64,000 nt of DNA from an uncultured Candidatus Actinomarina sp. (GCA_902533795.1 CACAND010000001.1:238844-302843), one strand, 5' to 3'; positions 4,852 through 53,781 are shown, counted from the stretch's first letter. Made by a program: numbers and translations. Notes: generated from the sequence alone by a model not told the origin.

Positions 4852-6209
4852 TAATCTTGTTGTCTTGAATAGTTTGAGAACTGTGTATATTCTTTACTGA
4901 AATATAAATCTATTTTACCTGTTGACCCTGACCTATGTTTAACAATATTAACCTCGGCTACTCCAGGTGTTTCTGTAGCAGGGTTGTAATAGTCATCTCT
5001 ATAAAGCATCATTACAATGTCAGCGTCTTGTTCAATTGCACCAGATTCACGAAGATCTCCTAATCTTGGTCTTTTATCTTCTCTTGCCTCAGCAGCACGA
5101 TTTAACTGTGACAAAGCAATTATTGGAACTTTTAACTCTCTAGCAAGATTTTTTAAGTTTCTACTTATTTCTGCGATTTCTTGTTGTCTGTTGTCTCCAG
5201 ATAGTCCCTGCATTAGTTGTAGATAGTCGACAACAATTAAATCTAATCCCTTTGAGGCTTTTAGTCTTCTTGATTTTGCTCGAATATCTGTGACCGTAAT
5301 TACGGATGCGTCGTCAAAATATAATGGCATATTGTTTACTTTGGATGCTGCTTCAACTACTCTTGACCATTTCTCTGGACCAAGTTGACCTTTCCTTGCA
5401 TCACCTGAAGTAACTTTTGCCTCTGAAAACAAAACTCTTTGCACTAACTCTTCTTTTGTCATTTCAAGAGAAAAGAACGCAGTGATTTTATTGTCTTTAG
5501 ATACATTTGTTGCAATATTTAAAGCTAAAGAGGATTTACCCATGCTTGGTCTGGCAGCTATTACTACTAAATTACCTTCTTGTAATCCAGCAAGGATTGA
5601 ATCAAGATCGGCAAAATCTGTTGCAAGTCCAGAAAGCCCAGTTCCTATATTCTCTATTTCCTCAATTTTCTCAATTGCATCGTTGAGTACATCTGAAACG
5701 CCAATTAATCCATCGCCTATAGCATCATCGGATGCCGTAAATATAGACTGTTCGGCCTCATCCATAACGCTCGATATGTCTTTATCTAGGGCATAAGCTA
5801 AGAGTTCTATTCTTCCGCTAGCTTTCAAGAGTTTTCTTCTGTTTGAATGTTCAAGGACAATCTCAATATATCTTTCAAAGTTTGCAGAACTTGGAACATT
5901 CTCAATAAGTCTTGCAATTGATGAAGTTTTCAAGCTTGTTGTATTTTTCTTATCTTTAAATACTGTCTCGGAAACTGTAACACTATCAATTGGTCTTCCA
6001 GAATCAAATAACTCTTTCATTGCTTCAAATATTGTTTGGTTGGTAGGGCTATAAAAATCAGATGGTTTTACAGCTTCCATGAGCCTATTAGAAGCATCTC
6101 TAGATAGAAGAGCACTCCCTAATAAAGCTTCTTCAGCCTCAATACTATTTGGTGGAGACTTTTGTAAAATTTCTGAATCTCTACTAGATAATGCTTCAGG
6201 TCCGGCCAT
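4851..6209 (-). CDS. dnaB: Replicative DNA helicase DnaB
   Basis: 452 aa. Has PPNSIEAEEALLGSALL at the N-terminus, Walker A ARPSMGKSS, and SQLNR. No intein-sized insertion. Confidence 0.95.
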   Translation of the reverse strand: MAGPEALSSRDSEILQKSPPNSIEAEEALLGSALLSRDASNRLMEAVKPSDFYSPTNQTIFEAMKELFDSGRPIDSVTVSETVFKDKKNTTSLKTSSIARLIENVPSSANFERYIEIVLEHSNRRKLLKASGRIELLAYALDKDISSVMDEAEQSIFTASDDAIGDGLIGVSDVLNDAIEKIEEIENIGTGLSGLATDFADLDSILAGLQEGNLVVIAARPSMGKSSLALNIATNVSKDNKITAFFSLEMTKEELVQRVLFSEAKVTSGDARKGQLGPEKWSRVVEAASKVNNMPLYFDDASVITVTDIRAKSRRLKASKGLDLIVVDYLQLMQGLSGDNRQQEIAEISRNLKNLARELKVPIIALSQLNRAAEAREDKRPRLGDLRESGAIEQDADIVMMLYRDDYYNPATETPGVAEVNIVKHRSGSTGKIDLYFSKEYTQFSNYSRQQD

Positions 6210-8754: not shown

Positions 8755-9390
8755 ATGTATTTTAGAATAACAATCCCAGCTCTACAGGATGGAAAAAAAG
8801 ATGAGGCTGTGTCTTTTGTAAAAGATAAAGTTATGCCTGAATTTGATGGTACACCTGGCTTGCTTTCAATGACAGCAGCCATAACAGGTGAGACATCTGG
8901 AATAAATATGTCGGCTTATGAAAATAAAGAAGCAAGTGACGCTATTGCGGAAAAAGTTCAAGCAACTCTAGCTGAGGCTGCATCATTTATGTCGGCACCT
9001 CCAGTAATTTATGAAGGTGAAGCTGTTTTTGGAAAGGTATACCAAAGCATTAGCAAGGAAGAGAAAAAACCTGGTTATATGAGATTGGTAGTGGGCGTAG
9101 CAAAAGAAACAGATGCTGTATTAAATTTCCTAAAAGAAAAAGTTGAACCTATTTATGAAGACTCTGAAGGCCTTCAGATAACTGGAGCATTGTTTGATGG
9201 CAATAGTGCTATCAGTTGGAATATATGGGACAGCCAGGAAGCTATGGAAAAAGCCGTAGAGAAATTACAAGCTGCTCTTGATAGCGAATCAGAAAGCGAT
9301 TTGTTTGATGGAGATACATTGGCCTACATGGGTCCTGTATATGCAGGTAAAGTATTCGTAGATTTTAATGAGGGTGAAAGCCCAAATTAA
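8755..9390 (+). CDS. Tandem dimeric alpha/beta-barrel (ABM/Dabb/NIPSNAP-like) protein of unknown function, family 'S'
   Basis: 211 aa made of two ~100-aa halves. The second half carries the ABM-like motif (ISWNIWDSQEAMEKA). Paralogous to 36972..37616, 38227..38880 and 38900..39541, with a shared C-terminal VDF.xGES. Confidence 0.55.
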   Translation: MYFRITIPALQDGKKDEAVSFVKDKVMPEFDGTPGLLSMTAAITGETSGINMSAYENKEASDAIAEKVQATLAEAASFMSAPPVIYEGEAVFGKVYQSISKEEKKPGYMRLVVGVAKETDAVLNFLKEKVEPIYEDSEGLQITGALFDGNSAISWNIWDSQEAMEKAVEKLQAALDSESESDLFDGDTLAYMGPVYAGKVFVDFNEGESPN

Positions 9391-9438
9391 GGCGTCTTTT
9401 TTTGTAAAATAAAAAAGAGTAATAACATAGGAGGAATT

Positions 9439-10056
9439 TTGTTAACAACAAAAGAAGCTCAACTTGGAAGTTTAATGGCAAAAATTGCAGCTTTAGGAAC
9501 AGTAGTTATATTTGCTGTTCAAGCTTTATTAATTGGACCAGATCAAGTTGGCTATAGTGAACAATATGGGGCAATCGTAGATATAGTTTCATTTATTCAA
9601 AGTTTTGGAATTTTATTTACTATATCTTTAACGCAAAAATTATTCGGAGATAACAATCCTTATTTTAGAATTGTTAGTGCAATTCTATTTGTAGCAGCTG
9701 TAATCCAATTAACTGGATCACTTTCCTCTACAGGGAATGCCAATAGTGTTTTCGAAAGCGTTTTGTCAACTGATCAGGTAAACTCTGTAGCTAATGTAGG
9801 GCAACTTGTTACATTTATACTTTTTGGTATTTGGGCATTATGTCTTATTAGTGCTGATGAAAATAATCTTGTGCCTTCATGGGGTAGGTTATCTGGTCAA
9901 GGTGCAGCATACTTGGTAATACTTGTTCAGATTGGTGCTTTATTTGGCTTGGTGCCGATCAATGCATTTGTGCCTGTATTTATACTTGGTGGAGTGATAT
10001 TGTTTCCAATTTTTGTATATGGAATCAGTGTTGCTTTTAATTCAACCGGAAGTTAA
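9439..10056 (+). CDS. Polytopic membrane protein of unknown function, family 'M1'
   Basis: 205 aa with a TTG start preceded by AGGAGG. About 6 hydrophobic segments. Shares LGSLMA, (D/N)xPYFR(I/V)V, (L/V)P(S/T)(W/Y)G and GGVILFP motifs with 39599..40213, and more weakly with 37616..38224. Confidence 0.55.
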   Translation: MLTTKEAQLGSLMAKIAALGTVVIFAVQALLIGPDQVGYSEQYGAIVDIVSFIQSFGILFTISLTQKLFGDNNPYFRIVSAILFVAAVIQLTGSLSSTGNANSVFESVLSTDQVNSVANVGQLVTFILFGIWALCLISADENNLVPSWGRLSGQGAAYLVILVQIGALFGLVPINAFVPVFILGGVILFPIFVYGISVAFNSTGS

Positions 10057-36971: not shown

Positions 36972-37616
36972 TTAATTTATTGATTCACCGGACTTAAAGT
37001 CAACAAATTGCTTTATTGCGTAAGGATTTCCATAATAATCATCAAACCCATTCATCAATGGCATAAATTGTTCGTACACATTTCCATCAGCATTAAGTTT
37101 TTCGTCGAAATCATGCTTTGCGTCATGAGAAGTCCAAAATTCAAATAACACTAAATTGTTTTCATCAGATTTGAAAGCTCCGTAAGAGATAATACCTTCA
37201 TCCTCTTCAAGTTTTGGTATGTAGATTTCCTTTTGAAGATTCATGTACTCATCAGCATCTTTGACATCTAATTTTGCAAATGCTAAAAACATTGTCTCTT
37301 TTGAATCTTCAATTAATGAATCTTTCAAAGTCTTACCAGTAATCAATTCACCTTCATAGACTCTTGGAAAACTATCAAGAATATCTTGAATTTGCATTAA
37401 GTTTTCGTTTCTAATTTCTGCAAATTTATCTGCAGTCTCTTTGTCCTTCATGAATGCAATACCAAGATTTACATTATCTTTTGGGTTAAAGAATGCAATT
37501 GAATACATGTCATCTCTAAGAGCCTCTAAAGCCGGGAACCCTGAGGTTTCAAAAAAGTCTTTGAGCTCTTCAAGCTTCCCGTCTTTAAATAAAATGGTTA
37601 CTGCAACTGCATACAT
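36972..37616 (-). CDS. Tandem alpha/beta-barrel protein, family 'S' (copy 4)
   Basis: The ATG at 37616 overlaps the upstream stop (TAATG), giving 214 aa MYAVAVTILFKDGK.... Has the VLFEFWTSHDAKHDF motif and a C-terminal VDFKSGESIN like 8755..9390. Confidence 0.55.
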   Translation of the reverse strand: MYAVAVTILFKDGKLEELKDFFETSGFPALEALRDDMYSIAFFNPKDNVNLGIAFMKDKETADKFAEIRNENLMQIQDILDSFPRVYEGELITGKTLKDSLIEDSKETMFLAFAKLDVKDADEYMNLQKEIYIPKLEEDEGIISYGAFKSDENNLVLFEFWTSHDAKHDFDEKLNADGNVYEQFMPLMNGFDDYYGNPYAIKQFVDFKSGESIN

Positions 37617-38224
37617 TAGCTTGCGTAAGCTTTTGATATTGCAAAAAACCAAGCAGGCGTCAAAACTACTCCAAGAATTACATTTAATGGTATAAATGCT
37701 GCATCAGGAAATAATCCAGCAAGAAAAACTATAGTTACTAATCCAATTCCATAACCAACTGTATTTCCTACTGCTGGTCCCCAGGATGGCAAAATATCTT
37801 TTCCATATTTTGCAAATTGTATATTCCACGGTGCTATAAAAAGAAATACAGCAGGAGTTACGTAGAAAACAAAATCAGCAGCCATATCAGCTGTTAAAGT
37901 AGTTTCGTTAAATGCATTATGAACTGCAGAAGGAACAAGTGCAGTTACCACACCTACAGCAGAGACTGTGTAGGCTAACCCAATTGATCCTGTCAGTAAT
38001 GGTTTATCTTTATCGTCAAGAAGCTTTCCCGATAATCTAACAACTCCCATTCCAGCCATAAGCTGAAGGGCGCTAGATATTCCAATTATCGGTCCCCAAG
38101 TTTCATTGTAACCTGATGCATCTGGTCCTAATACAAATACTTGAATAAGAAAATTTGCAAGCAATAAAGTTAATGCTCCTAATGCAAATCTTCTACCAAG
38201 ATTTTTTTCTTCTGTTGTTATCAT
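37616..38224 (-). CDS. Polytopic membrane protein, family 'M1'
   Basis: 202 aa. Shares LG...A..L, GPD.SGY, LPSWG and the C-terminal pattern with 9439..10056 and 39599..40213. Confidence 0.55.
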   Translation of the reverse strand: MITTEEKNLGRRFALGALTLLLANFLIQVFVLGPDASGYNETWGPIIGISSALQLMAGMGVVRLSGKLLDDKDKPLLTGSIGLAYTVSAVGVVTALVPSAVHNAFNETTLTADMAADFVFYVTPAVFLFIAPWNIQFAKYGKDILPSWGPAVGNTVGYGIGLVTIVFLAGLFPDAAFIPLNVILGVVLTPAWFFAISKAYAS

Positions 38225-38226
38225 TA

Positions 38227-38880
38227 TTATTTACTCCATTCTGATAGTTTCCCCGCAGGGAAGCTAGCCATATTTCTCCAGATACTACATTCGCCAGTAA
38301 CGATTGTTGGGGGACTCTTAATGTAGTTTTGTGCATCAGCCATAATTTGTTGAAATGACTCTAACGACGCGTCAAGTGCTTCTTGGCTGTCCCAGTTACT
38401 TAAAGTAACGAACTTTCCTCCAACGTCAACTGCGAATGCACCAAGCAAACCTTCGGTTCCTTCATATCCTGCATAAACAGTATTTTGTAGCCAATCCATG
38501 CCCTCATCATATTTTTCTTCAATATATTCTGAACCATATCCAATTCGAACAACAAAAGATTGCCCTTCTCTATCGCCTTTCATAATATTTACATATTGCT
38601 GACCAGCAGTCATTGGTCCAAACGAAATCTCAGGTGGTCCCGTGACAAAGTCTTTTAAACCTCCAAGAGCTTCTGCTAATTGTTCACTTGATCCGTTCAT
38701 TGAATCTTCGCTCAACCAGGTTGACCAAGACATAAGCTGACCATCGCTATTTTCACACAATGCAACTTGCAATAATCCAGGTATTCCTATAAATTCGTCG
38801 ACTTTTTCTTCTGCGAAAGACATCGCATCATCCATTTTTCCTTCTTGAATAGGTACAAGTGTTAATCTAAAAAATAACAT
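38227..38880 (-). CDS. Tandem alpha/beta-barrel protein, family 'S' (copy 3)
   Basis: 217 aa. Has MLFFRLTLVPIQEGK..., LMSWSTWLSEDS and VTLSNWDSQEALDAS motifs. Confidence 0.55.
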   Translation of the reverse strand: MLFFRLTLVPIQEGKMDDAMSFAEEKVDEFIGIPGLLQVALCENSDGQLMSWSTWLSEDSMNGSSEQLAEALGGLKDFVTGPPEISFGPMTAGQQYVNIMKGDREGQSFVVRIGYGSEYIEEKYDEGMDWLQNTVYAGYEGTEGLLGAFAVDVGGKFVTLSNWDSQEALDASLESFQQIMADAQNYIKSPPTIVTGECSIWRNMASFPAGKLSEWSK

Positions 38881-38899
38881 TTATACTCCTTTCTTTTTT

Positions 38900-39541
38900 T
38901 TATAATTTTCCTACAGGAAAGTCAACATAATTTTTCCATACATTACACTCTCCGGTTAATTCTTGGGGTGCTTCTTTAATCAAATTTGCAACTGCGTCTT
39001 TTACAACTTCTGTAATCACACCAGATGCTGCATGTGCAGCGTCGTGATCAGTCCAGAAGTTAAAACTAAAGCCCGTGTCATTATCTACTTTGCAAGCAGC
39101 AGATGCATAAATTCCATTAACATTTTCATATGCTGGATAAACAGTGCTTGTCATAAAAGCGCCAGCATCATCATATGTTTTACCATCCTGCATGCCACCT
39201 CCCATGACAAATCTTGCGAAGAAAGAATCTCCTCCATCTTTTGGAACCATAATGTACTGTTGAGCTGCAATCATTGGTCCTTCGAGAATTGTTGGCGGCT
39301 CTGTTATTAAGTCTGCCAAACCTGAAAGGTTTTGTTGAAATTCATCCATTGCAGCTTCCTTCGCCTCATTGTTAGCCCACATAGTCCAAGCCATGAGTTG
39401 TCCCTCATTGTTTATACAAGCTCCAGCTGAAAGTATTCCACTTACCTGATCGTAAACTGGAATTGCTACATCTCTAAAATAATTTAAAGCATCTTCAGTC
39501 ATGCCTTCTTTAGGGTTTGCTAACCCAAGTCTTACATACAT
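38900..39541 (-). CDS. Tandem alpha/beta-barrel protein, family 'S' (copy 2)
   Basis: 213 aa. Has MYVRLGLANPKEG..., LMAWTMWANNEAKEAA and FSFNFWTDHDAAHAA motifs. AGGAG SD present. Confidence 0.55.
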   Translation of the reverse strand: MYVRLGLANPKEGMTEDALNYFRDVAIPVYDQVSGILSAGACINNEGQLMAWTMWANNEAKEAAMDEFQQNLSGLADLITEPPTILEGPMIAAQQYIMVPKDGGDSFFARFVMGGGMQDGKTYDDAGAFMTSTVYPAYENVNGIYASAACKVDNDTGFSFNFWTDHDAAHAASGVITEVVKDAVANLIKEAPQELTGECNVWKNYVDFPVGKL

Positions 39542-39598
39542 TTTTCTCCTAACGTAATTTTTGCATTAGTAAAGTATGTTACAAAGCCCTGTTTCTGT

Positions 39599-40213
39599 TT
39601 ACGCCTTTGAAAATGCTGAGGAAAATGAGAATATAAATGCTGGAAACAAAATTACTCCTCCTAATACAGCTATCAAAATAAAGGCTCCTTCTGGTAAAAG
39701 TCCAAATATACTTCCAAGAGAAAACACCAATATTAAAATAGAACCGCCCCAGCCAGAATAAACTCCATAGGTTGGAAGCTCACCATTATTAACTGTAAGT
39801 ACACAAATTACTGCTATTCCAGCTAATAAATTCCAACCCCATGCATTAATATTTTGTAGTATCTGTATTTGATCAACTGTAAAGAGTGTTCCATCGTTAT
39901 TAAAGTACCCAGTTGCGTTAAAGCTATTTACCATATTTATAGCTATTACTGCAAAAAAGGCTTGAATAACCACTCTAAAGTATGGTTTATCTTCAGCATT
40001 GAAGAGCTTTAGTGAGAATGCAAGTACAAACAAAAAAGAAAATGCTTGTGCGTAATTTAAAATTGCGACTATTCCTCCCGTTGCTGAATCAAAACCAGGA
40101 CTACCTGGATCACCCAATGCAACCTGCACTGCAAATGATAAAAAGATACATGCCGCAGAAACGCGAGCCATTAAGCTTCCTATTCTTTTTTCACTATCAG
40201 ATAATGTATTCAT
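39599..40213 (-). CDS. Polytopic membrane protein, family 'M1'
   Basis: 204 aa. IGSLMARVSA, EDKPYFRVV, LPTYG and LGGVILFP motifs match 9439..10056. Confidence 0.55.
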   Translation of the reverse strand: MNTLSDSEKRIGSLMARVSAACIFLSFAVQVALGDPGSPGFDSATGGIVAILNYAQAFSFLFVLAFSLKLFNAEDKPYFRVVIQAFFAVIAINMVNSFNATGYFNNDGTLFTVDQIQILQNINAWGWNLLAGIAVICVLTVNNGELPTYGVYSGWGGSILILVFSLGSIFGLLPEGAFILIAVLGGVILFPAFIFSFSSAFSKA

Positions 40214-40223
40214 TTTTTTCTTT

Positions 40224-40772
40224 CTATTCTCTATTTCTCCAAGCCAACAATGGCCCTACTCCCAAACCTAAGATAAATGTTATCCAAAGAACTAATTGAA
40301 GAGGCATTAGAGCTTCGGGTGCTTCATATCCAAAAAACACTCCAGCTCCTGAAAAAATGACTCCCATTAATCCTCCAACTAAAAGATTGTATCGGTAGAA
40401 ATTTCGAATAACTCCTTCTGAGACCGCAAATAAAGAAACCATACTAAAACAGATAATGAAAAAAAATGGACCAAATTCATTTCCATCAGCTCTATCTCCT
40501 ATTGTTAAACAACTACCAGCAAGAACTGCTGCGCCAAGAAAGGTTGTACCTTCTTTCCAGTTTTCCGGTACGTTATCTCCCAGTAAAGGCTTCATTGTCA
40601 GAAAAATACTTGCAACACTAAACCCCCATAAAAAATCTAATAATAATTCTCCAGGAGGAGACTCCATTCCCATGATACCCGAAGTTACAAACCCAAATAG
40701 ATTGACTATTAAGAATAAGTAACCTGCTTGCAATCCATTTTCTTTATCTGTTGATGTAAAAAATGTTTTCAC
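40224..40772 (-). CDS. Polytopic membrane protein, family 'M2'
   Basis: 182 aa. MKTFFT start, DNVPENWK, and C-terminal LGLGVGPLLAW. Paralog of 40790..41362. Confidence 0.5.
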   Translation of the reverse strand: MKTFFTSTDKENGLQAGYLFLIVNLFGFVTSGIMGMESPPGELLLDFLWGFSVASIFLTMKPLLGDNVPENWKEGTTFLGAAVLAGSCLTIGDRADGNEFGPFFFIICFSMVSLFAVSEGVIRNFYRYNLLVGGLMGVIFSGAGVFFGYEAPEALMPLQLVLWITFILGLGVGPLLAWRNRE

Positions 40773-40789
40773 AATTTTTTTCCTTTCTT

Positions 40790-41362
40790 CTATTCCGTGC
40801 CCAATGACATTTTGTCACCCCAAGCAACATAGCTACCAACGCCTAGTCCAATAATCATTGCAATCCACCCAATTCCAAATAATGGTTGAAATGACTCTGG
40901 TAGTGTATAGTCAAAGAACAGCTGTGCTCCTGAACCAATTAAAATAAATGTAAAAGCAAAAATGCTTAGATATTCATAAACTGGTCTAAACACTCCAGTA
41001 CCTCTAGTCGTGAGAGCGAAAGTTAACGTGTTAAATGCCCATAAAAAATACATTCCAGCAAATCCATTTTCTCTAAATTCTGGAAATGATATTTCAATTA
41101 GCGTCCCAAGAATTATCACAGCACCTAAAATACCTGTAGCCATTTTCCAATAATCGGGAACTTGATCTTCTATTAAATAATATCCTCCAAGAATTATTCC
41201 TAAAAGTGTAAATGCCCAAGCAAAGTTGAATATTCTATTGATCCCTTCTGGCCCCTCATATAGACCGAATCCATTACCAATAAGATATAAATTACAACCA
41301 ATAAATCCAATACAATTTTGTCTTGCCAGTTGCCCTACCGGCTGTGTAAAAAATTTTTTCAT
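40790..41362 (-). CDS. Polytopic membrane protein, family 'M2'
   Basis: 190 aa. MKKFFT start, DQVPDYWK, and C-terminal IGLGVGSYVAW. First gene of the operon, preceded by an AGGAAGG SD. Confidence 0.5.
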   Translation of the reverse strand: MKKFFTQPVGQLARQNCIGFIGCNLYLIGNGFGLYEGPEGINRIFNFAWAFTLLGIILGGYYLIEDQVPDYWKMATGILGAVIILGTLIEISFPEFRENGFAGMYFLWAFNTLTFALTTRGTGVFRPVYEYLSIFAFTFILIGSGAQLFFDYTLPESFQPLFGIGWIAMIIGLGVGSYVAWGDKMSLGTE

Positions 41363-45461: not shown

Positions 45462-46189
45462 TAAATATCGCTTAAAGAAGTAACTCTTGAAATAATCTCT
45501 TCTTGAGAAGGTTCCTCCATGTCGCTAGCTACTTCTCCATCTTTGAGCATTATTACTCTTTCAGCAAAAGAAGCTGCGTATGGATCATGAGTAACCATTA
45601 CAATCGTCTGATTCAATTCACTAACTACTGACTTCATAAAAGTTAGTAGTTCTTTACTTGACTTTGAATCTAAGTTTCCAGATGGTTCATCTGCAAAAAT
45701 TACTTCAGGCTTAGTTGCCATTGCTCGAGCTGCAGCAACTCTTTGTTGTTGTCCACCTGAAAGTTCATTAGGTCGATGATTTAATCTATCTCCAATATCA
45801 ACAGCATTGACAATTTGATTAATCCAATCCTCATCTGGTTTCTTGCCAGCAATTGAAGATGGGAGTGTGATATTTTCTTCTGCAGTCAATGTTGGAATTA
45901 AATTGAATGCCTGGAAAACAAAACCAAATGAATCTCTCCTCATTTTTGTTAACTCTTTATCGTTAAGATTGCCTAGATCAGTACCTTTAATAAATATCGA
46001 CCCAGAAGTTACTTTGTCCAGACCAGCAAGACAATGAAGCAAGGTAGATTTACCTGACCCAGATTGACCCATGATTGCTGTAAATTTATTCTCATAAAAA
46101 TCAAGATTTACATTATTTAAAGCTGTAACAGAGGTTCCTTCTTCTCCATAAATTTTTGTCAAATCTTTGGCAACTATTATCTTTTCCAT
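45461..46189 (-). CDS. ABC transporter ATP-binding protein (MacB/LolD-type)
   Basis: 242 aa. Has Walker A GQSGSGKST, signature LSGGQQQRV and Walker B IFADEP. Its stop overlaps the permease start. Confidence 0.9.
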   Translation of the reverse strand: MEKIIVAKDLTKIYGEEGTSVTALNNVNLDFYENKFTAIMGQSGSGKSTLLHCLAGLDKVTSGSIFIKGTDLGNLNDKELTKMRRDSFGFVFQAFNLIPTLTAEENITLPSSIAGKKPDEDWINQIVNAVDIGDRLNHRPNELSGGQQQRVAAARAMATKPEVIFADEPSGNLDSKSSKELLTFMKSVVSELNQTIVMVTHDPYAASFAERVIMLKDGEVASDMEEPSQEEIISRVTSLSDI

Positions 46190-46260: not shown

Positions 46261-46267
46261 ATTAAAT

Positions 46268-46309
46268 ATGAAAAATATAACTAGCTGGAATTGGTGGACA
46301 ACTACATAG
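46268..46309 (+). CDS. Trp-rich leader peptide MKNITSWNWWTTT
   Basis: A 13-codon ORF read by hand, with three TGG codons at 46286, 46292 and 46295. It is followed by alternative pairings and a terminator upstream of trpB2. Confidence 0.7.
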   Translation: MKNITSWNWWTTT

Positions 46310-46335
46310 GTAGCTGCCCCACTAGTTAGTTCTTA

Positions 46336-46358
46336 ACCGGGCACAGCCCGGTTTTTTT
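46336..46358 (+). terminator. Attenuator terminator of the trp leader
   Basis: ACCGGGC-ACA-GCCCGGT (7 bp, GC-rich) followed by TTTTTTT. It lies 54 nt upstream of the trpB2 ATG. Confidence 0.8.
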
Positions 46359-46411
46359 ATTACTGTCACTGAAATTAAATCTCCGGGCTCAACCCAAAAG
46401 AAGGAGCAAAA

Positions 46412-47767
46412 ATGAAAGAACAGTATAAATATCTACTAAATGAGGATGATTTGCCAAAGCAGTGGTATAACATTGTTCCGGATTTACCAAATCCGTTACC
46501 ACCTCAGCTAAATCCTCAAACAATGGAGCCAATTGGTCCCGAAGATTTAGCCCCATTATTTCCAATGGGATTAATACTACAAGAGGTTTCTGATCAAAAT
46601 TATATTGATATTCCAGAACCAGTTTTAGAACTTTATAAGCTTTATAGGCCTTCGCCGATGTATAGAGCTCTAAGACTTGAAAGAGCTATAGGTACAAACT
46701 CAAGAATATATTACAAGTATGAAGGTGGATCACCTTCAGGATCTCATAAGCCTAACACAGCTATTCCACAAGCTTTTTTTAATGCTGAGGAAGGAATTAA
46801 AAAAATGGTCACAGAGACTGGAGCGGGTCAATGGGGTTCCGCTTTATCATTTGCTTGCCAGGCATTTGGTATTGAGCTTGAGGTATTTCAAGTAGCAGCA
46901 TCTTACGAATCAAAACCTTACAGGAAGACAATGATGGAGATCTACGGAGCGAAAGTTTATCCAAGTCCATCTGATAAAACAGATATTGGTAAGAAATTTT
47001 TAACAGAAGATCCGAATACGCCTGGAAGTTTAGGGATAGCTATTTCAGAAGCAATTGAAGTTGCTCGGAAAGAAGAAGGTACAAGATATGCGCTTGGAAG
47101 TGTTTTAAATCATGTACTTATGCATCAATCTGTAATTGGTCTTGAGGCATTGAAGCAAATGGAAATGGCTGAAGATTACCCAGATGTTATTGTTGGCTGT
47201 ACAGGAGGTGGATCAAACTTTACTGGTTTATTTTCACCATTTTTAAGAAATAATATATTAACGGATCAAAAAGCAACAATCCGCGCTGTTGAGCCAGAGG
47301 CTTGTCCTTCGTTAACTAAAGGCGTGTATACATACGACTTTGGCGATTCAGTTGGTTTGGCTCCTGTTGTAAAAATGCACACTTTAGGATCTAGTTTTGT
47401 TCCAGACCCAATACATGCTGGAGGATTGCGATATCACGGTATGGCACCACTGGTAAGCGCAATGTATGAAGAGAATCTAATAGAAGCAGAAGCAATTGGT
47501 CAAAAAGAATGTTTTGAGGCTGGTCAGCTTTTTGCTAAAACTGAAGGTATTGTACCGGCCCCAGAAGCCACTCACGCAATTGCCTCCGCAATAAGAGCAG
47601 CCAAAGATGCTGACCAAAATTCAAAAGAAATTGCTGTGTTAACTGCTATGTGTGGACATGGACATTTTGATATGAAGGCATACGAGAACTTTTTAAGTGG
47701 TGAAATGATTGACTATGAATTTCCTGCTGACAAAGTGAAAGTTGCTTTGGAGTCAGTTAAGAAATAG
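46412..47767 (+). CDS. trpB: Tryptophan synthase beta chain, TrpB2 (stand-alone, long-form) type
   Basis: 451 aa. The N-terminal extension with LPKQWYNIVPDLPNPLPP is typical of TrpB2. PLP-Lys motif YEGGSPSGSHKPNTA and GCTGGGSNF are present. AAGGAG SD. Confidence 0.85.
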   Translation: MKEQYKYLLNEDDLPKQWYNIVPDLPNPLPPQLNPQTMEPIGPEDLAPLFPMGLILQEVSDQNYIDIPEPVLELYKLYRPSPMYRALRLERAIGTNSRIYYKYEGGSPSGSHKPNTAIPQAFFNAEEGIKKMVTETGAGQWGSALSFACQAFGIELEVFQVAASYESKPYRKTMMEIYGAKVYPSPSDKTDIGKKFLTEDPNTPGSLGIAISEAIEVARKEEGTRYALGSVLNHVLMHQSVIGLEALKQMEMAEDYPDVIVGCTGGGSNFTGLFSPFLRNNILTDQKATIRAVEPEACPSLTKGVYTYDFGDSVGLAPVVKMHTLGSSFVPDPIHAGGLRYHGMAPLVSAMYEENLIEAEAIGQKECFEAGQLFAKTEGIVPAPEATHAIASAIRAAKDADQNSKEIAVLTAMCGHGHFDMKAYENFLSGEMIDYEFPADKVKVALESVKK

Positions 47768-47771
47768 AGTT

Positions 47772-50009
47772 ATGACTGAAAATCAATTGACTTATGGAAA
47801 TAAAGCTAAAAATTTAGAATTTGTAGCTAGAAATACAGATATTGAAATTCCATACTTTAAACAAATTTATTTAGAAGATTTAGAACATATTGAAAAAATT
47901 CTTGTTAATTTTTCTAAAAAAATAATGATAAGAAGTAATAGTTCTGAGGAGGACGAAGAAAGGTTTTCAAGTGCAGGAAAATATCTATCTTTAGGTCCGA
48001 TAGATAAACAAAATATCGTAGCTATTAAGAAATCATTTACGATGGTGCTTGATAGCTACGGTGAAAAAGTTAATCAGTCAGTAATTTTTCAAAATTATGT
48101 AGACAACGCTAAAAGCGTCTCAGTAATAACTTCATATAAAGTAGGAACTGACTCTGCATATAGATCATTTTCTACTTATTTTGGGTCTGAAACTGAAGCC
48201 GTCACATCAGGCAAATATGGTGAAATAGAGAATTTCTTTATGCACAGATCTGTTGACTATCTGCCAAATAAATATGAGAAAAATAACGTTTATCTAAAAG
48301 TAATGACACAACTTGAAGACTTATTTAAAAATAAACAACTAGATATTGAAATGGTTCTTGATAAAAATAATTCCCCACAGCTGCTCCAAGTAAGACCATT
48401 GATGGGCAAAAAGCTCAATAAAGATTCTATATTTGATGAAAAAAAAGTTATCGATAAAAATTTAGAAAAATATAACAAGCTAAGCGAAACAACTTCAGAT
48501 CGATTTGGCTCAAATAAAATTTACAGCAATATGTCAGATATGAATCCAGCTGAAATGATAGGTAAAAAACCTGACAATATTGCTTTTGGTTTATATAAGT
48601 TCATGTTCACTGATACAACATGGAATATACAACGTGGAGAGTTTGGTTATCGCGAATATTCTGGTGGAAAATTGATGGAAATGTTTAATAATGTGGCATA
48701 TATAAATGTAAATCACAGTCTTAATAGTTTTCTTACAAGAAACTTACAAAAAGAAAGCTGTGAAAAAATAATTAATTATCAGCTAAGTAAATTAAAAGAA
48801 AACCCGCACTTGCATGACTCTATAGAGTTTGATATTTCTAGGTCGTCATATATTTTTGATACAGTTGAAGAATTTTCTAAAGAATATAAAAATATAATTG
48901 ATAAAAATGAAATTATTCAATGGCATAGTGATTTAGTTCAAATTGATTCACAAAATAAAACTACTTTAGAAAAAAATAAAGAAATTATTTTAAGAACTTT
49001 CTCAAAATTGGATAAGAGCTTTGAGTATTTAAAAAAAGAAAATATAACACTAATAAGAGATACCATGGCCCTTCCTTTTACCCATCATTCGAGATTAGGA
49101 TTTGTATACTTTGCTCAACTTAATAGCCTTCTTGAAAAGGGAGTTATTACAGAAGATCAAAAAAAATTATTGCTTTTATCAGTTAATTCCATAAGTACAA
49201 AAATGAAAGCTGATGCGTATGAAGTCAAAATTGGAAAAAAAACATTGAACGACTTTTTTGATGTTTATGGTCATATAAGAGCTGGAAATTATAATCTTTC
49301 ATCATCAAACTTAAAAAACAATTTAAGTTTTACTGAATCACTGATTAACAATAGTGGGCAACCTTTGGAAGACAATATTTTACCAAAGGATATATTTACG
49401 AATATTGAAAAATATTTCATAGTAAACAATATTCCCTTAAAGGCGTCTGCTTGGATAGATATGTTTCAAGACGGAATTTCAACAAGAGAAAACTCTAAAT
49501 TTTATTACACCAAAGGTATAGATGGAATTTTAAATGAAATAAGTGAAAAAAATACCAGCGATAGAGAATTGTTTGATTTACTAGATATTGAATTTAATGA
49601 AGAAAATACTAGTGATATGAGATTAAAGAATGTATTAATGCCCGATTTAATTACTTCTAACGAAGACTTTTATTTTTACGAAGAAATGAGTAAAAATGGA
49701 AATTATATAGGTCAGGGAACAATAAATGGGGACGTTTTATTGATAGATAATGAAGCTAATCGTCCTGAAAATCTTGACAATAAAATAGTCGTTATTCCGG
49801 CTGCAGACCCAGGTTGGGATTGGATCTTCAACTACAAAATAAAATCGCTAATTACAAAGTATGGAGGACCAAACTCTCATATGGCCATTAGATGTGCTGA
49901 ACATAATATCCCAGCAATTCTTGGTGTTGGAGAAAACAATTTTACAGTTATAGCAAACTCAAAAAGTTTAGAAATAGATTTTTCCAATGAAAGCTTTTCA
50001 AATGTATAA
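47772..50009 (+). CDS. PEP-utilising-family phosphotransferase: N-terminal ATP-grasp (PPDK_N-like) plus C-terminal phosphohistidine swivel domain, no PEP/pyruvate TIM barrel
   Basis: YGNKAKNLEF and IRSNSSEEDEERFSSAGKYLS (cf. GGKxxNL / VRSSAxxED...SFAG). C-terminal KYGGPNSHMAIRCAEHNIPAILGVG swivel-His motif. The ATG at 47772 lies 4 nt after the trpB2 stop; the ORF-track start at 47742 is TTG. Confidence 0.65.
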   Translation: MTENQLTYGNKAKNLEFVARNTDIEIPYFKQIYLEDLEHIEKILVNFSKKIMIRSNSSEEDEERFSSAGKYLSLGPIDKQNIVAIKKSFTMVLDSYGEKVNQSVIFQNYVDNAKSVSVITSYKVGTDSAYRSFSTYFGSETEAVTSGKYGEIENFFMHRSVDYLPNKYEKNNVYLKVMTQLEDLFKNKQLDIEMVLDKNNSPQLLQVRPLMGKKLNKDSIFDEKKVIDKNLEKYNKLSETTSDRFGSNKIYSNMSDMNPAEMIGKKPDNIAFGLYKFMFTDTTWNIQRGEFGYREYSGGKLMEMFNNVAYINVNHSLNSFLTRNLQKESCEKIINYQLSKLKENPHLHDSIEFDISRSSYIFDTVEEFSKEYKNIIDKNEIIQWHSDLVQIDSQNKTTLEKNKEIILRTFSKLDKSFEYLKKENITLIRDTMALPFTHHSRLGFVYFAQLNSLLEKGVITEDQKKLLLLSVNSISTKMKADAYEVKIGKKTLNDFFDVYGHIRAGNYNLSSSNLKNNLSFTESLINNSGQPLEDNILPKDIFTNIEKYFIVNNIPLKASAWIDMFQDGISTRENSKFYYTKGIDGILNEISEKNTSDRELFDLLDIEFNEENTSDMRLKNVLMPDLITSNEDFYFYEEMSKNGNYIGQGTINGDVLLIDNEANRPENLDNKIVVIPAADPGWDWIFNYKIKSLITKYGGPNSHMAIRCAEHNIPAILGVGENNFTVIANSKSLEIDFSNESFSNV

Positions 50010-50038: not shown

Positions 50039-50521
50039 TCAGCCTAAAGACAGAGTGGTTATCTCCTTCCACTCAGATACTGTGGGGCCAGTTTTATAAA
50101 GCTCTAAAGTATCAAATGTAATAGTTGTGGGGATGAGATTATCAAAATTTGTAGAATTATAAGATTTCGGTAACTCATTCCCATAATAAAGAGAAAGGTG
50201 GGGGACCCATAAACTTGGCCAACTTTCAAGATTTATTACTAAATTGTTGAATGGAATATTATCAGATGCTGTTAAGTAAAGTCTTTGAAAGTAGCTTTCG
50301 CCTTCGCAGATTCTATCAAAGGTCACTGTAATTTTTTCTTTTTTAATCTGATCTAGAATATCATTTGCTTTTTCTTGTGAATTAATTTTTGTAACAAGAG
50401 TGACGTGGGGATCAAATGAAACTTTGTTCTCTTCTTTAGCAAAAGAATCAATTTGATTTTTAATATTTCCTACATCATCAGAAGAAGACTTCACCCATAT
50501 TGAAAATGTCTGTTCTTCCAA
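50039..50521 (-). CDS. 2H phosphoesterase superfamily protein (cyclic phosphodiesterase/LigT-like)
   Basis: 160 aa with two HxT/S motifs about 70 aa apart (PHVTLV, PHLSLY). Confidence 0.5.
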   Translation of the reverse strand: MEEQTFSIWVKSSSDDVGNIKNQIDSFAKEENKVSFDPHVTLVTKINSQEKANDILDQIKKEKITVTFDRICEGESYFQRLYLTASDNIPFNNLVINLESWPSLWVPHLSLYYGNELPKSYNSTNFDNLIPTTITFDTLELYKTGPTVSEWKEITTLSLG

Positions 50522-50527
50522 AATATC

Positions 50528-51385
50528 TTATCTATTTTTGATTTTTGATTTACTTGAAATATATGACAATAGAAAAACTGTTGAAGCCACTAATGACATA
50601 GAAGGACCAGTAGGTAAATCAAGATGATATGAAATGATTAAACCAGCTACAGATGAAATAATACCAAAAGCTATGCTGACTTTAATTGAGTCTATGAATG
50701 TATTTGTAATTAGCTTTGCTGATGCAGCAGGAATTATCAACATACTCAAAACTAAAATTATCCCTACTGTTTGAAGAGCGCTTACAACAGCTAAAGACAA
50801 TGTTATTAAAAATAGATAATTAAGAAAGTTGGTATTTAAACCTTTTACTTCAGCTCCTATTGGGTCAAATGAATAAAATAAAAGCTGTTTGAAGAAAATT
50901 ACAATAGTTCCAATCACTATTAAAAATAAAGCTGTGATGATATAAATATCACTTCTATTCACAGCTAATATTTGACCAAACAGAAGATCTTCCAAGTTGA
51001 TTGTTACATTGAGGAGCTTTATCAATATAAAACCTAAAGCAAAAAAAGTCGAAAAGATTATACCTATTGAGGTGTCTTCCCCAATTTTTGTATTTTTAAC
51101 TATAAAGCCAAGGAATATAGCCACGACAATAGCTGCTGGTGCTCCTAGTTCTGAAATACTAAACCCAAAGAAAACACCTACTGCAATTATAGGAAGAGTT
51201 GCGTGAGCCATAGCATCAGCCATAAAACCCATATTTCTGTTGATTGTAAATGTTCCTAGTGTTGAAAGAGTTGCCCCACAAAAAACTGCTGCGATAAGTG
51301 CTCTTATCATAAAATCATATTGGAAAGGGTCTATTAAAAGTTCAGATAACATATTAAGAGCCGTGACTACCTGGTTTGTGATCAA
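50528..51385 (-). CDS. znuB: Metal (Zn/Mn) ABC transporter permease, ABC-3 family
   Basis: 285 aa, about 8 TM, lying in an operon after the ATPase and the cluster-9 binding protein. Confidence 0.8.
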   Translation of the reverse strand: MITNQVVTALNMLSELLIDPFQYDFMIRALIAAVFCGATLSTLGTFTINRNMGFMADAMAHATLPIIAVGVFFGFSISELGAPAAIVVAIFLGFIVKNTKIGEDTSIGIIFSTFFALGFILIKLLNVTINLEDLLFGQILAVNRSDIYIITALFLIVIGTIVIFFKQLLFYSFDPIGAEVKGLNTNFLNYLFLITLSLAVVSALQTVGIILVLSMLIIPAASAKLITNTFIDSIKVSIAFGIISSVAGLIISYHLDLPTGPSMSLVASTVFLLSYISSKSKIKNR

Positions 51386-52133
51386 GAAACATATTTTCGT
51401 GTGAGCCGTACATTTCTTCTATCACTTCTTCTGTAAGAACTTCCAACGGGTCTCCAAAAGCACAACAATGCCTATTTAAACATAAAACTTCATCAAATTT
51501 ATCTTCTAGATTGTTGATGTCGTGTGTAGCAACTAATATCGTTTTTTCTTTAAGATCACTTCCATTGATTATTTTCATTATGTCTTCTTGAGCTCCAACA
51601 TCGATAGCGCTGAACGCTTCATCAAGTAACAAAATAATAGAATCTTGTATCAAAGCTTTTGCTAACAGAACTCGCTGTTGTTGTCCTCCTGATAGGTTGT
51701 TTATATTTTCTTCACTTTTATCCAAGATTCCAACTTGATCAAGAGATTCATTTATCATCTCTGCATTTTTTTTCTGATTAAAACTTAATAAAGTACTTTT
51801 ATCTGTCAATCCCATCTCTACAACCTGTTTTACAGAAAGTTGAAAATTCCAATTTAAAGAATCTTTTTGTGGAATGTAGCTAATCATTCCTTTTGCCTTA
51901 AGCGGATCCAAACCATCTATCTTTAATGAACCGCTAGACAGTGGAATTAATCCGGCTAATGCTTTGAATAAGGTCGATTTTCCACCACCATTTGGACCAA
52001 CTACTGCAATTTTTTTACCTTTTGTAATTGAGAAAGTTACATCATCAATAGCAAGAGCTTCTCCATACTGAACACAGCAACCATCTGAGACAATTAACCA
52101 TTCTGATTCGTAAATGTTTTCTTTTGTAGTCAT
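51354..52133 (-). CDS. znuC: Metal ABC transporter ATP-binding protein
   Basis: 259 aa. Has Walker A GPNGGGKST, LSGGQQQRV and LLLDEA. Confidence 0.85.
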   Translation of the reverse strand: MTTKENIYESEWLIVSDGCCVQYGEALAIDDVTFSITKGKKIAVVGPNGGGKSTLFKALAGLIPLSSGSLKIDGLDPLKAKGMISYIPQKDSLNWNFQLSVKQVVEMGLTDKSTLLSFNQKKNAEMINESLDQVGILDKSEENINNLSGGQQQRVLLAKALIQDSIILLLDEAFSAIDVGAQEDIMKIINGSDLKEKTILVATHDINNLEDKFDEVLCLNRHCCAFGDPLEVLTEEVIEEMYGSHENMFLDHKPGSHGS

Positions 52134-52193
52134 AAAGACCTCTTAGAAGTCCTTGAAACTATCTTAAATTATAATTAATCAAGATCCTTCTTG

Positions 52194-53219
52194 TTATTTC
52201 AAGTTATTTACAATCAACTCTACATTGCTTATTAAGAACTCGCTATAAGATTGATTTGGTTTTAATGTCTCAACATATAAACCTGTCACAAGCGTTATAC
52301 CAGTTTCTTGAGAAAGAGTTTCTGCGTAAACCGAAGGTGTTTCTGACTCAACAAACATGACTTTTACACCTTCTTTTTCTATAACTTCAATAACTTCAAC
52401 CAAATCTGATGGAGAAACCTCATCTGATGAATCTAAACTTGGAATAATAGTTGCAAGAACTTCTAATCCAAATTTTGCTTCAAGGTAACCAAGTGACTCA
52501 TGAGTTGTAATAAGTTTTCTGTTTCCAGATGGAATCATTCCAATTAACTCAATAACTTCATTTACTAATCCTTTTAGCTCAGTAGTAAAAGTATCTGTCA
52601 AAGATTTATAGCTTTCCTCATTTGTTGGATCATATTGTATTAACTTTCCTTCAATGTATTCAGCAGCATAAGAAACTCTGTTTGGATCAAACCAGAAATG
52701 AGGGTCGTATGCGCCATGACCATGTCCTTCATGCTCATCATGACCCTCTTCTTCATCATCATGACCTTCTTCTTCATCGTCATGACCTTCTTCACCGTGA
52801 TCATCATGATCGTCATGACCACCTTCTTTAAATTCTATAGGGAAAACGCTTTCACCTACTTCAGCTAAAACCTCTGGACTGCATGCTGAACTTTCTAATA
52901 GCTTCAAAAGTGGTGCAGGTTCATACTTCAATCCAGTGAAAAATATAAGATCTGCTTCAGCTATGGTTGTAGCGTCTTGAGGTGATGGATCATAAGTATG
53001 CGGGTTTGCTTCAGGGGGCATTAAAACTGTAAGACTAATATTGTCTCCACCTACCTGGCTAACAAATTCACCCATCATAGGTGTTGTAGCTAGTACGTTT
53101 AAAGTATCTCCATCTTCTCTTTCACGGCAACTAGACTCATCAGTGCCGCTACCAGTACAAGCAACAAGAACCAATGAAAGTGCTAATACTGCGTATTTAA
53201 ACATAGGTTTATTGTTCAT
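52194..53219 (-). CDS. znuA: Zinc ABC transporter substrate-binding lipoprotein with His/Asp/Glu-rich loop
   Basis: 341 aa. Lipobox LVACTGS, metal ligands (NPHTYD, DPHFW, THESLGY), and a long HDDHDDHGEEGHDDEEEGHDDEEEGHDEHEGHGHG loop typical of ZnuA. Confidence 0.82.
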   Translation of the reverse strand: MNNKPMFKYAVLALSLVLVACTGSGTDESSCREREDGDTLNVLATTPMMGEFVSQVGGDNISLTVLMPPEANPHTYDPSPQDATTIAEADLIFFTGLKYEPAPLLKLLESSACSPEVLAEVGESVFPIEFKEGGHDDHDDHGEEGHDDEEEGHDDEEEGHDEHEGHGHGAYDPHFWFDPNRVSYAAEYIEGKLIQYDPTNEESYKSLTDTFTTELKGLVNEVIELIGMIPSGNRKLITTHESLGYLEAKFGLEVLATIIPSLDSSDEVSPSDLVEVIEVIEKEGVKVMFVESETPSVYAETLSQETGITLVTGLYVETLKPNQSYSEFLISNVELIVNNLK

Positions 53220-53251
53220 TTATTTTCCTTATCTAAATTTTAAAATACAAT

Positions 53252-53272
53252 AAATGAGATTAAGTCTCATTT
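53252..53272. promoter_or_regulatory. Candidate Zur/Fur-family operator
   Basis: AAATGAGAT-TAA-GTCTCATTT, a 9-3-9 AT-rich inverted repeat (8/9 arm matches). It lies 33 nt upstream of the znuA start, in the znuA/zur divergent spacer. Confidence 0.45.
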
Positions 53273-53325
53273 TTCTTTTTGTCAAGCCCGTATTCATTGA
53301 ATTTCATATTTTTTTATTGTTGAAA

Positions 53326-53781
53326 ATGAACTATGATTATTTAGTCATGGATAATTCAAGAAAAATTTTAACTGAACACAAAGTATCTATTACGAATCCA
53401 AGAATTGTTGTACTAGAAGCTTTACTAGAACTTAAAAGTCCAATTACGGTTGATGAACTTTTAGAACAACTTAAAAATAAAGTAGCTAAATCAACATTGT
53501 ATAGAGTGTTAAACGATTTAAAAGATATAAACATTTTGCATGAATTTTCGACACCTGAAAATCAGACTGTGGTTGAACTTATATTGGAAGATCACTCACA
53601 TCATCATCATTTATTTTGTAGTGATTGTGGTGAAATAATAGATGTAGAGATGGCTACAGAATTTGAAAATAGACTATTAAAAGAGATAAAAAGAATTGAG
53701 AAAAAATTTAATTTTGTAATTGACGATCACAGGCTTGAATTGTTTGGTAAATGTACAGATCTGTGTGTGAATTGTAAATAA
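53326..53781 (+). CDS. zur: Fur-family metalloregulator, probably Zur
   Basis: The ATG at 53326 gives 151 aa, whereas the ORF-track start at 53254 adds an implausible hydrophobic extension. Has a winged-helix N-terminus, HSHHHHLFCSDCG and a C-terminal CxxxCxxC. Divergent from znuABC. Confidence 0.72.
   Translation: MNYDYLVMDNSRKILTEHKVSITNPRIVVLEALLELKSPITVDELLEQLKNKVAKSTLYRVLNDLKDINILHEFSTPENQTVVELILEDHSHHHHLFCSDCGEIIDVEMATEFENRLLKEIKRIEKKFNFVIDDHRLELFGKCTDLCVNCK

Follow-up and report, generated by a model that had tools for sequence, protein, structure and literature searches.

A predicted tryptophan attenuator precedes trpB2 and an accessory, remodelled glutamine-kinase-type gene in Candidatus Actinomarina

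Introduction

Attenuation of the kind described for the Escherichia coli trp operon (trpL type) combines a short leader peptide with clustered Trp codons, mutually exclusive 1:2, 2:3 and 3:4 pairings, and a GC-rich stem followed by a run of T residues; leader-peptide trp attenuation is also known in Corynebacterium and Streptomyces. Here we describe a candidate attenuator of this type in a 64,000-nucleotide stretch from an uncultured Candidatus Actinomarina sp. (GCA_902533795.1 CACAND010000001.1:238844-302843), the whole of which we refer to as the window. The attenuator precedes trpB2, a gene for a stand-alone tryptophan synthase beta enzyme, and, immediately behind it, a gene for a 745-residue protein related to L-glutamine kinases. 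The window has a GC content of ~32%, and its nearest relatives are single-cell genomes of Candidatus Actinomarina (OCS155 marine actinobacteria).

Both enzymes have described counterparts. TrpB2 enzymes are reported to prefer or depend on O-phosphoserine (Busch 2014, as cited in PMC11917138), and the characterised member of the second family, Cj1418 of Campylobacter jejuni (EC 2.7.3.13), is described in secondary citations as phosphorylating the free amino acid L-glutamine. The tryptophan pathway is absent from all Actinomarinales according to PMC7771536, and it is likewise reported absent, as is serC, from 84 complete Actinomarina genomes (2026 preprint, bioRxiv 10.64898/2026.04.03.716425). 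Neither trpB nor indole is mentioned in the text of these two papers.

Results

The leader of trpB2 has the build of a trp attenuator

Numbered from the first letter of the window, the locus consists of the following features:

46268-46309, plus strand: leader peptide open reading frame (ORF) MKNITSWNWWTTT followed by a stop codon; 13 amino acids, three Trp codons within four positions (W-N-W-W)
46279-46331, plus strand: hairpin 1:2, pairing the Trp-codon region with a downstream segment (minimum-free-energy fold; alignment of 19 leaders)
46314-46344, plus strand: antiterminator 2:3, pairing CTGCCC (46314-46319) with GGGCAC (46339-46344), the 5' arm and loop of the terminator
46335-46358, plus strand: intrinsic terminator, a GC-rich hairpin AACCGGGC-ACA-GCCCGGTT followed by a T7 run
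46359-46400, plus strand: nearly invariant element that separates the terminator from the ribosome-binding site (ATTACTGTCACTGAAATTAAATCTCCGGGCTCAACCC...), from the intergenic alignment
46412-47767, plus strand: trpB2, stand-alone TrpB2-type tryptophan synthase beta enzyme, 451 amino acids (NF009057, TIGR01415)
47768-47771, plus strand: 4-nucleotide spacer AGTT, from the trpB2 stop codon TAG to the ATG of the second gene
47772-50009, plus strand: second gene, 745 amino acids, ATG start

The positions and spacing of the two genes are those given in a preliminary description of this DNA. A mechanical ORF list begins the second ORF at TTG 47742; the ATG at 47772 is the start common to orthologues. 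The preliminary description had also placed the transcript under Trp attenuation, and this proposal is borne out by a leader ORF, a terminator and an antiterminator in the sequence, with pairings that are conserved across species. The minimum-free-energy fold of 46262-46414 (-40.3 kcal/mol, z = -2.9) contains both the 1:2 helix and the terminator, which is the sole terminator-like site on the plus strand between 46100 and 50150. We scored the pairings over an alignment of 19 distinct Actinomarina leaders, with slid controls that refer to whole structures. The terminator was 100% paired in 19/19 leaders, the cells of the 1:2 helix were paired at 79.5-95% (slid controls, whole structure, 32-50%), and 98.2% of cells were paired in the 6-base-pair antiterminator (slid controls, whole structure, 24-42%). 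Within the antiterminator, one pair shows a compensatory switch from GC to CG (three sequences), and two variants involve wobble pairing; the window's own sequence has a C-C mismatch at the outermost position.

The region therefore has two features of a trp-type attenuator, namely a short leader with clustered Trp codons and a terminator with a mutually exclusive antiterminator, and ribosome-mediated Trp attenuation of the trpB2 transcript is well supported as a prediction from sequence. When charged tRNA-Trp is scarce, a ribosome would stall on the W-N-W-W codons of the 13-residue leader, and stalling would leave CUGCCC available for pairing with the terminator's 5' arm, so that transcription reads through. 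When the leader is fully translated, the 1:2 hairpin would sequester the antiterminator strand.

Among all Actinomarina leaders recovered, the pattern is found in one copy per assembly and encodes two distinct types of peptide, MKN[IV]TSWNWW... and MYKVTNWNWWTLHM. A W-N/H/S-W-W core is common to both, with L109 alone reading L-N-W-W. The intergenic region varies far less than synonymous sites, as illustrated by L002 and L004, which differ at 3/220 intergenic positions vs a synonymous divergence (dS) of 0.225. The ~42-nucleotide element behind the terminator repeats the CCGGGC arm of the latter and is almost invariant among type-1 leaders; it is missing from type-2 leaders and is present behind the orphan leader of AG-390-B19 (L191:1870-1925). 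This extra conserved element distinguishes the Actinomarina attenuator from trp operon attenuation as described in E. coli, as does its predicted target, a salvage gene in an auxotroph rather than a biosynthetic operon. It also has no Rfam family: nothing reached the gathering threshold across the whole window, and a permissive search of the leader returned chance-level matches only. A promoter consensus scan gave 17 sites vs 18 expected in DNA of 32% GC.

One further leader of the Actinomarina type, MIHSNNWSWWTLHM, was found on a 2.7-kb contig binned as Polynucleobacter (L115, CAYVBV010000187.1), together with a trpB2 83% identical to that of the window; this contig is probably mis-binned.

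TrpB2 is an ordinary member of its family

The trpB2 product scored 700.7 bits against NF009057 (cut-off 366) and 613 bits against TIGR01415 (cut-off 518.85), vs 146.9 bits against the canonical trpB model, which is under the cut-off of 392.45. Its best solved relatives are 6HUL_B, 4QYS_B and 6HTE_B (385-431 bits; next TrpB chains at most 127 bits), presumably all TrpB2-type structures; 'beta chain 2' is the deposited name for two of these chains. The lysine that binds pyridoxal phosphate is predicted to be K113 in the motif GSHKPNT. The protein is thus an ordinary member of the TrpB2 family, as had been proposed, and resembles other members in being stand-alone, without trpA nearby; no trp genes lie within ~5 kb on either side of the pair. 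It differs from them in being, according to the literature, the sole Trp-pathway enzyme of its organism and in having its own Trp-codon leader, which precedes trpB2 in 24/28 resolved Actinomarina species loci. The ratio of nonsynonymous to synonymous substitution (dN/dS) of trpB2 is 0.005-0.063 (about 0.02). Since the Trp pathway is reported absent and trpB2 is both highly constrained and, as predicted, Trp-attenuated, TrpB2 makes sense as an enzyme of indole salvage, which would make tryptophan from scavenged indole and serine or O-phosphoserine. Indole salvage in Actinomarina seems to have been missed by KEGG-module scoring.

RNA contigs join trpB2 to the second gene

The RNA evidence consists of assembled contigs from four seawater metatranscriptomes, 95-99% identical to the window. 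In each of the four runs a contig crosses the junction between trpB2 and the second gene (46699-48901, 46374-48745, 47066-48074 and 47099-47907), and a scan of the plus strand found no terminator-like site between the two genes; both results are consistent with the single transcript assumed in the preliminary description. Two contigs run through the leader terminator (46284-47128 and 46313-46756), and there are contigs that stop short of it. Contigs of the divergent ATP-binding cassette (ABC) gene end at 46019-46168, and none shown bridges to the leader contigs. The pattern fits one mRNA from an intergenic promoter with partial read-through. For the arrangement that lacks trpB2, described below, RNA contigs are sparse and some cross the divergent promoter region. 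In run X29, the leader region and sequence downstream of the second gene are linked on one contig (depth 20), which suggests that a leader-only form was present in the RNA of that sample.

The second protein is built like a glutamine kinase

The 745-residue protein can be divided into three domains:

47772-48491, plus strand: residues ~1-240, ATP-grasp nucleotide-binding domain (AlphaFold model, Foldseek, PPDK_N in homologues)
48492-49673, plus strand: residues ~241-634, helical central (acceptor) domain of the glutamine-kinase family, remodelled (full-length homology)
49674-50009, plus strand: residues ~635-745, phosphoenolpyruvate (PEP)-utiliser swivel domain with His703, codon 49878-49880 (PF00391)

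The PF00391 match covers residues 670-736 and the protein contains the swivel motif GGPNSHMAIRCAEHNIPAILGVG. Pfam did not detect PPDK_N in the protein itself; in homologues, PPDK_N matches over the region aligned to its N-terminus. An AlphaFold model built on 39 diverse homologues (pLDDT 88, pTM 0.86) was searched with Foldseek, and the N-terminal ~200 residues matched Ddl, RimK, LysX and the ATP-binding domain of rifampin phosphotransferase. The ATP-grasp residues conserved in the family (K11, R54, E60, D61, Q107, E193, Q206 and R208) are retained, and H703, in GGxNSHMAIR, is invariant both in the 39 diverse homologues and at 76/76 genome loci. The protein therefore has the three domains of a glutamine kinase: an ATP-grasp domain, a helical central domain and a C-terminal phosphohistidine swivel with its His. 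An ATP-grasp domain, a middle region and a phosphohistidine swivel were also what the preliminary description had recognised.

As had likewise been noted, the PEP/pyruvate TIM barrel is missing: none was found in Pfam and NCBIfam scans. PEP synthase and pyruvate phosphate dikinase share with the second protein a PPDK_N-type ATP-grasp domain and a PEP-utiliser swivel domain; the second protein differs in having the swivel at the C-terminus and in lacking the barrel that binds PEP or pyruvate, and it scored 14-26 bits with the models of these families vs cut-offs of 456-976, the swivel region being the sole part that matched. We therefore rejected both assignments.

The best whole-chain Foldseek match is Listeria rifampin phosphotransferase (E 6e-19), in agreement with the rifampicin-phosphotransferase-like architecture proposed earlier. 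With this enzyme (RPH-Lm; PDB 5HV1, 5FBS, 5FBT) the protein shares the order of ATP-grasp, substrate and His-swivel domains (Foldseek E 6e-19 to 1e-14), and the swivel and last helices also align by sequence (E 1.3e-6). The two differ in that identity is 13-15%, that the TM-score is about 0.4 (domain orientation differs) and that the central domain is without recognisable sequence similarity. The resemblance in fold is real; membership of the rifampin phosphotransferase family was rejected, as NF041857 matched the swivel region only, with 20.1 bits vs a cut-off of 999.

The middle region, which the preliminary description could not assign, is accounted for by homology along the full length of the protein to the Cj1418-type L-glutamine kinase family. 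Against NF004508 (PRK05849, 'hypothetical protein') the protein scored 488.1 bits over its full length, just under the cut-off of 501. The middle domain thus belongs to a family with a known substrate class, different from the one that had been proposed, which partly contradicts the earlier hypothesis. An exhaustive search of cluster representatives yielded 2352 related clusters, with forms of ~775 and ~1000 amino acids. Several homologues are named 'glutamine kinase' by JGI, and an end-to-end alignment with one of them gave 30% identity (E 7e-79).

The gene context of distant family members points in the same direction. A class-I amidotransferase (Peptidase_C26) and/or a MobA-like NTP-transferase is encoded within 6 kb in 65/76 distant family loci, and both partner genes are found in 47 of the 76, mostly at +1 and +2; some loci also carry an adenylylsulfate (APS)-kinase-like gene. 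We take this set of amidotransferase, cytidylyltransferase and APS-kinase-like genes to correspond to Cj1417, Cj1416 and Cj1415 of the O-methyl-phosphoramidate pathway, the gene-by-gene assignment being in part our presumption. No TrpB homologue is encoded within 6 kb at any of the 76 distant kinase loci. From the JGI names, the gene context, secondary citations and general knowledge of the pathway, the predicted family of the second protein is that of the Cj1418-type L-glutamine kinases, and we refer to its gene as the kinase gene. It shares with Cj1418 the three-domain order, a full-length alignment, the swivel His in GGxNSHMAIR and, presumably, a chemistry that runs from ATP through His to the acceptor. 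The Actinomarina copies differ in lacking Cj1417-like and Cj1416-like neighbours and in following trpB2 downstream of a Trp attenuator, an arrangement that no other lineage showed.

By analogy with the family, the ATP-grasp domain would bind ATP, and His703 on the swivel would take up phosphate and hand it to an acceptor in the helical central domain; the products would be a phosphorylated small molecule together with AMP and phosphate. AMP and Pi are the products in the stoichiometry of EC 2.7.3.13. By this presumed phosphotransfer route, the second protein would be a His703-dependent, ATP-driven phosphotransferase on a glutamine-kinase scaffold.

The ~1000-residue members of the family carry an N-terminal extension of 200-280 amino acids (L028:5314-6000; P0122-P0124, residues 1-205) with an 'ILAGG' motif and a weak MobA-like NTP-transferase match (E 2.4e-4). 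The extension may be a fused or degenerate cytidylyltransferase-like domain, although a separate NTP-transferase gene usually follows.

Actinomarina copies lack partner genes nearby and have replaced a set of family-invariant residues

Homologues of the amidotransferase and cytidylyltransferase partners were found neither in the 64-kb window nor in the flanks of ~45 Actinomarina loci. The nearest non-Actinomarina relatives of the kinase are P0122-P0124 (37-41% identity), and a metagenome scan for the nearest outgroup yielded one locus of this type, L175, in which amidotransferase and NTP-transferase genes follow directly downstream, inside a glycosyltransferase cluster.

The 47 proteins from partner contexts define 118 family-conserved columns (at least 90% conserved). 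Actinomarina leaves 89 of these unchanged, including the ATP-grasp residues and the swivel motif with His703, and has changed the remaining 29. The major replacements (W257M, G307N, D312N, R314N, P322T, K350S, G432M, A440S, A446Y, P504A, T506N, Y514L and F579Y) are identical in each of five sampled Actinomarina lineages and are fixed, or nearly so, among 22 copies. Elsewhere, R314, P322, A440 and P504 are kept in 76/76 copies, W257, K350, G432 and Y514 in 75/76, and D312 in 74/76, and T506 is likewise invariant or almost so; the replacements at the first nine of these positions are shared by 22/22 Actinomarina copies. The sister group retains W257, D312, R314 and K350, so that the loss of these residues coincides with the loss of the partner genes. 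The lost Asp, Arg and Lys are of the kind that would be expected to hold the charged backbone of an amino acid.

Scores against NF004508 (cut-off 501) follow the same division: members in partner contexts reached 811-980 bits, the outgroup 566 and the five Actinomarina copies 488-496. On three of the four points on which equivalence to the glutamine kinases could be judged, namely the model score relative to its cut-off, the gene neighbours and the family-invariant residues, the second protein departs from the family, and we therefore treat it as a variant of the glutamine kinases and not as a member. Its gene is not decaying, since dN/dS is 0.10-0.20 in all three genomic contexts in which it occurs. 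Given that the partner genes are lost nearby and that charged and aromatic residues invariant in the family are replaced, the acceptor is probably no longer L-glutamine.

Were the protein still an L-glutamine kinase, it would make N5-phospho-L-glutamine for a phosphoramidate surface decoration, with its partners encoded elsewhere, for example in the hypervariable envelope island, and its position behind trpB2 would be incidental. The full-length homology, the 89 conserved columns that are kept and a nearest outgroup that lies in a polysaccharide cluster are all in keeping with such a role, and Actinomarina has a flexible envelope-glycosylation island (PMC7771536). We nevertheless consider it improbable, because residues invariant in 75-76 of the 76 other members are replaced, the score lies below the NCBIfam equivalog cut-off, unlike that of nine other members tested (566-980 bits), partners are missing from the window and ~45 Actinomarina flanks vs their presence in 65/76 loci elsewhere, and the gene stands in the conserved core, not in a variable island.

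The structural match to an antibiotic-inactivating enzyme, and an acceptor domain with fewer charged residues and additional Met, Tyr and Leu, could also be read as signs of an inducible detoxifying phosphotransferase, analogous to rifampin phosphotransferase. Its target would be a Trp antimetabolite or an inhibitor of tryptophanyl-tRNA synthetase that itself induces the gene through stalling at the Trp codons; there is precedent for resistance genes controlled by leader peptides. This reading earns very little credence from us, in view of the 20 bits scored with the rifampin phosphotransferase model vs its cut-off of 999 and of the many species in which the gene is absent or uncoupled from the leader.

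The pairing of trpB2 with the kinase gene is facultative

In 28 Actinomarina species loci we resolved the site that is flanked by the ABC ATPase gene and a gene for a 160-residue phosphoesterase. The latter gene converges on the kinase gene in the window, and the site occurs in four states:

50039-50521, minus strand: gene for a 160-residue 2H/cyclic-phosphodiesterase-like protein, convergent with the kinase gene, gap 29 nucleotides
State A: leader-trpB2-kinase, 11 species representatives
State B: leader-kinase, without trpB2, 3 species representatives (L002-L004)
State C: leader-trpB2 alone, 13 species representatives
State D: leader alone, 1 species representative (L191, AG-390-B19)

The phosphoesterase gene stays in place in all four states, with the exception of AG-447-G15, where it is missing. 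In state B, trpB2 is cleanly missing at the locus and was not detected in the assemblies, each of which has one copy of the leader; the kinase has a dN/dS of 0.15-0.18. Six of the state C species carry the kinase gene ~50 kb away, 2 nucleotides behind a gene for a DUF417-like membrane protein and without a leader. The assemblies of the other seven yielded no kinase gene; among them is L117, whose leader-trpB2 unit lies in other flanks. The DUF417-linked arrangement characterises one clade (L014-L019 and L021; about 5513-5956), in which the kinase gene lies 2 nucleotides after the 145-residue DUF417-like gene with no Trp leader upstream, converges with metX- and metY-like genes (named by eye on the basis of their translations) and has a dN/dS of 0.10-0.14. 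In state D (L191:1790-1960), the leader ORF MYKVNNWNWWTLHM, the terminator and the post-terminator element are intact and the convergent 160-residue gene comes directly next.

The preliminary description had called for a survey of the adjacency of trpB2 and the kinase gene across Actinobacteria. This adjacency is not conserved: it occurs in 11 of the 28 Actinomarina species loci that were resolved, and outside the genus it was never found, with no kinase homologue within 5 kb at any of 51 non-Actinomarina trpB2 loci. The kinase gene is under the leader in 14/21 carrier species, with a spacer after trpB2 of at most about 15 nucleotides. From the four states it follows that the conserved unit is leader plus trpB2 and that the kinase gene is accessory.

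This result bears on the hypothesis, raised in the preliminary description, that the partner supplies a phosphorylated co-substrate, for instance as an L-serine kinase (or similar) that feeds O-phospho-L-serine to TrpB2 for indole salvage. In its favour, the kinase is co-transcribed and co-regulated with TrpB2 in 11 species, its acceptor domain is remodelled, and the characterised family member is said in secondary citations to phosphorylate a free amino acid. Two published reports also speak for it: TrpB2 enzymes are described as O-phosphoserine dependent (Busch 2014, through PMC11917138), and serC is absent from the 84 complete genomes, so that the usual source of phosphoserine may be missing. 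The coupling itself did not hold up. In L002-L004 the kinase is kept by purifying selection and the assemblies yielded no trpB2, 13 species have leader-trpB2 without an adjoining kinase (seven of them with no kinase detected), and the gene is unlinked and leaderless in seven species. Moreover, D312, R314 and K350 are lost, though a serine kinase would presumably still need residues that hold the backbone. As selection maintains either gene where the other is lacking, we rate a supply of phosphoserine low, and the facultative pairing makes a dedicated serine kinase feeding TrpB2 unlikely.

The same locus states could be explained if the kinase had taken on a new role that has nothing to do with tryptophan and shared a transcript with trpB2 merely because genes are tightly packed in a streamlined genome. 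Leader, trpB2 and kinase each occur without the others, the clade with the kinase at a leaderless site shows a dN/dS that is as low, and enlarged operons with minimal spacers have been noted for Actinomarinales (PMC7771536). On the other hand, 14 of the 21 carriers place the kinase under the leader at short distance, the arrangement persists across lineages with saturated synonymous sites, and after the loss of trpB2 the kinase was joined to an intact attenuator and ribosome-binding site. On balance we think such a purely incidental association unlikely, if somewhat less so than a supply of phosphoserine.

Neighbouring genes

The genes around the pair are not Trp-related. On one side lie a divergent MacB-type ABC exporter and an M20 peptidase; on the other, the convergent neighbour of the kinase gene is the 2H/cyclic-phosphodiesterase-like phosphoesterase gene listed above, and beyond it lies an uptake operon:

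50528-53781: zinc/manganese-type uptake operon, encoding a ZnuA-like binding protein, an ABC ATPase (ABC_tran) and an ABC-3 permease

The ZnuA-like binding protein has a long loop rich in His, Asp and Glu, and a gene for a Fur-family regulator adjoins the operon divergently. Elsewhere in the window, tandem paralogue pairs are found at 36972-41362 (minus strand) and 8755-10056 (plus strand). Each pair consists of a soluble protein of ~210 amino acids with weak matches to ABM (dimeric alpha/beta barrel) and a membrane protein of ~200 amino acids without a Pfam match, and several copies are present in a type of genome said to have very few paralogues.

Discussion

The reading that best explains our results is that a Trp attenuator drives a two-gene mRNA, that TrpB2 salvages indole, and that the kinase is a neofunctionalised phosphotransferase riding as an accessory passenger in a Trp-starvation operon. 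We give this reading as a whole a probability of roughly 0.5. From the position of the leader, the kinase is predicted to be induced together with TrpB2 in most lineages under a shortage of charged tRNA-Trp. Since trpB2 and the kinase gene are each also found alone, the kinase does not qualify as an obligatory partner of TrpB2. That the kinase has some physiological role in tryptophan economy we advance only tentatively, at somewhat less than even odds.

Several points weigh against this reading. The partner genes of a glutamine kinase could lie elsewhere in the genome, and no solved glutamine kinase structure was found. The RNA contigs may contain some DNA. State D keeps the leader without any gene behind it, so that the leader ahead of the kinase in state B is not proof of selection. 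The kinase is unlinked to the leader in the seven species with the DUF417 context and undetected in seven species that have trpB2. Streamlined genomes fuse unrelated genes into operons, and the link of the kinase to tryptophan may be accidental.

A more specific proposal is that the protein is a novel small-molecule kinase, derived from a glutamine kinase, that acts in the Trp-starvation response, either by converting serine to O-phosphoserine for TrpB2 or by phosphorylating an indole-related or Trp-mimicking substrate. We regard this as doubtful. If it were true, an abundant 'Trp auxotroph' of the ocean would run a regulated two-enzyme salvage route from indole to tryptophan.

For the organism, a strongly conserved trpB2 under what appears to be a textbook attenuator implies that indole can substitute for tryptophan in a reported strict auxotroph, and the nutritional dependence of Actinomarina and its links to indole-producing neighbours would then have to be re-read. 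For the family, the second gene would be a natural case of an enzyme leaving its pathway, with the scaffold and the His kept, the partners gone, the acceptor residues replaced and selection continuing, which makes the protein a good candidate for a new phosphotransfer reaction. The four natural locus configurations among close relatives offer a ready 'knock-out' set for testing whether TrpB2 and the kinase function jointly.

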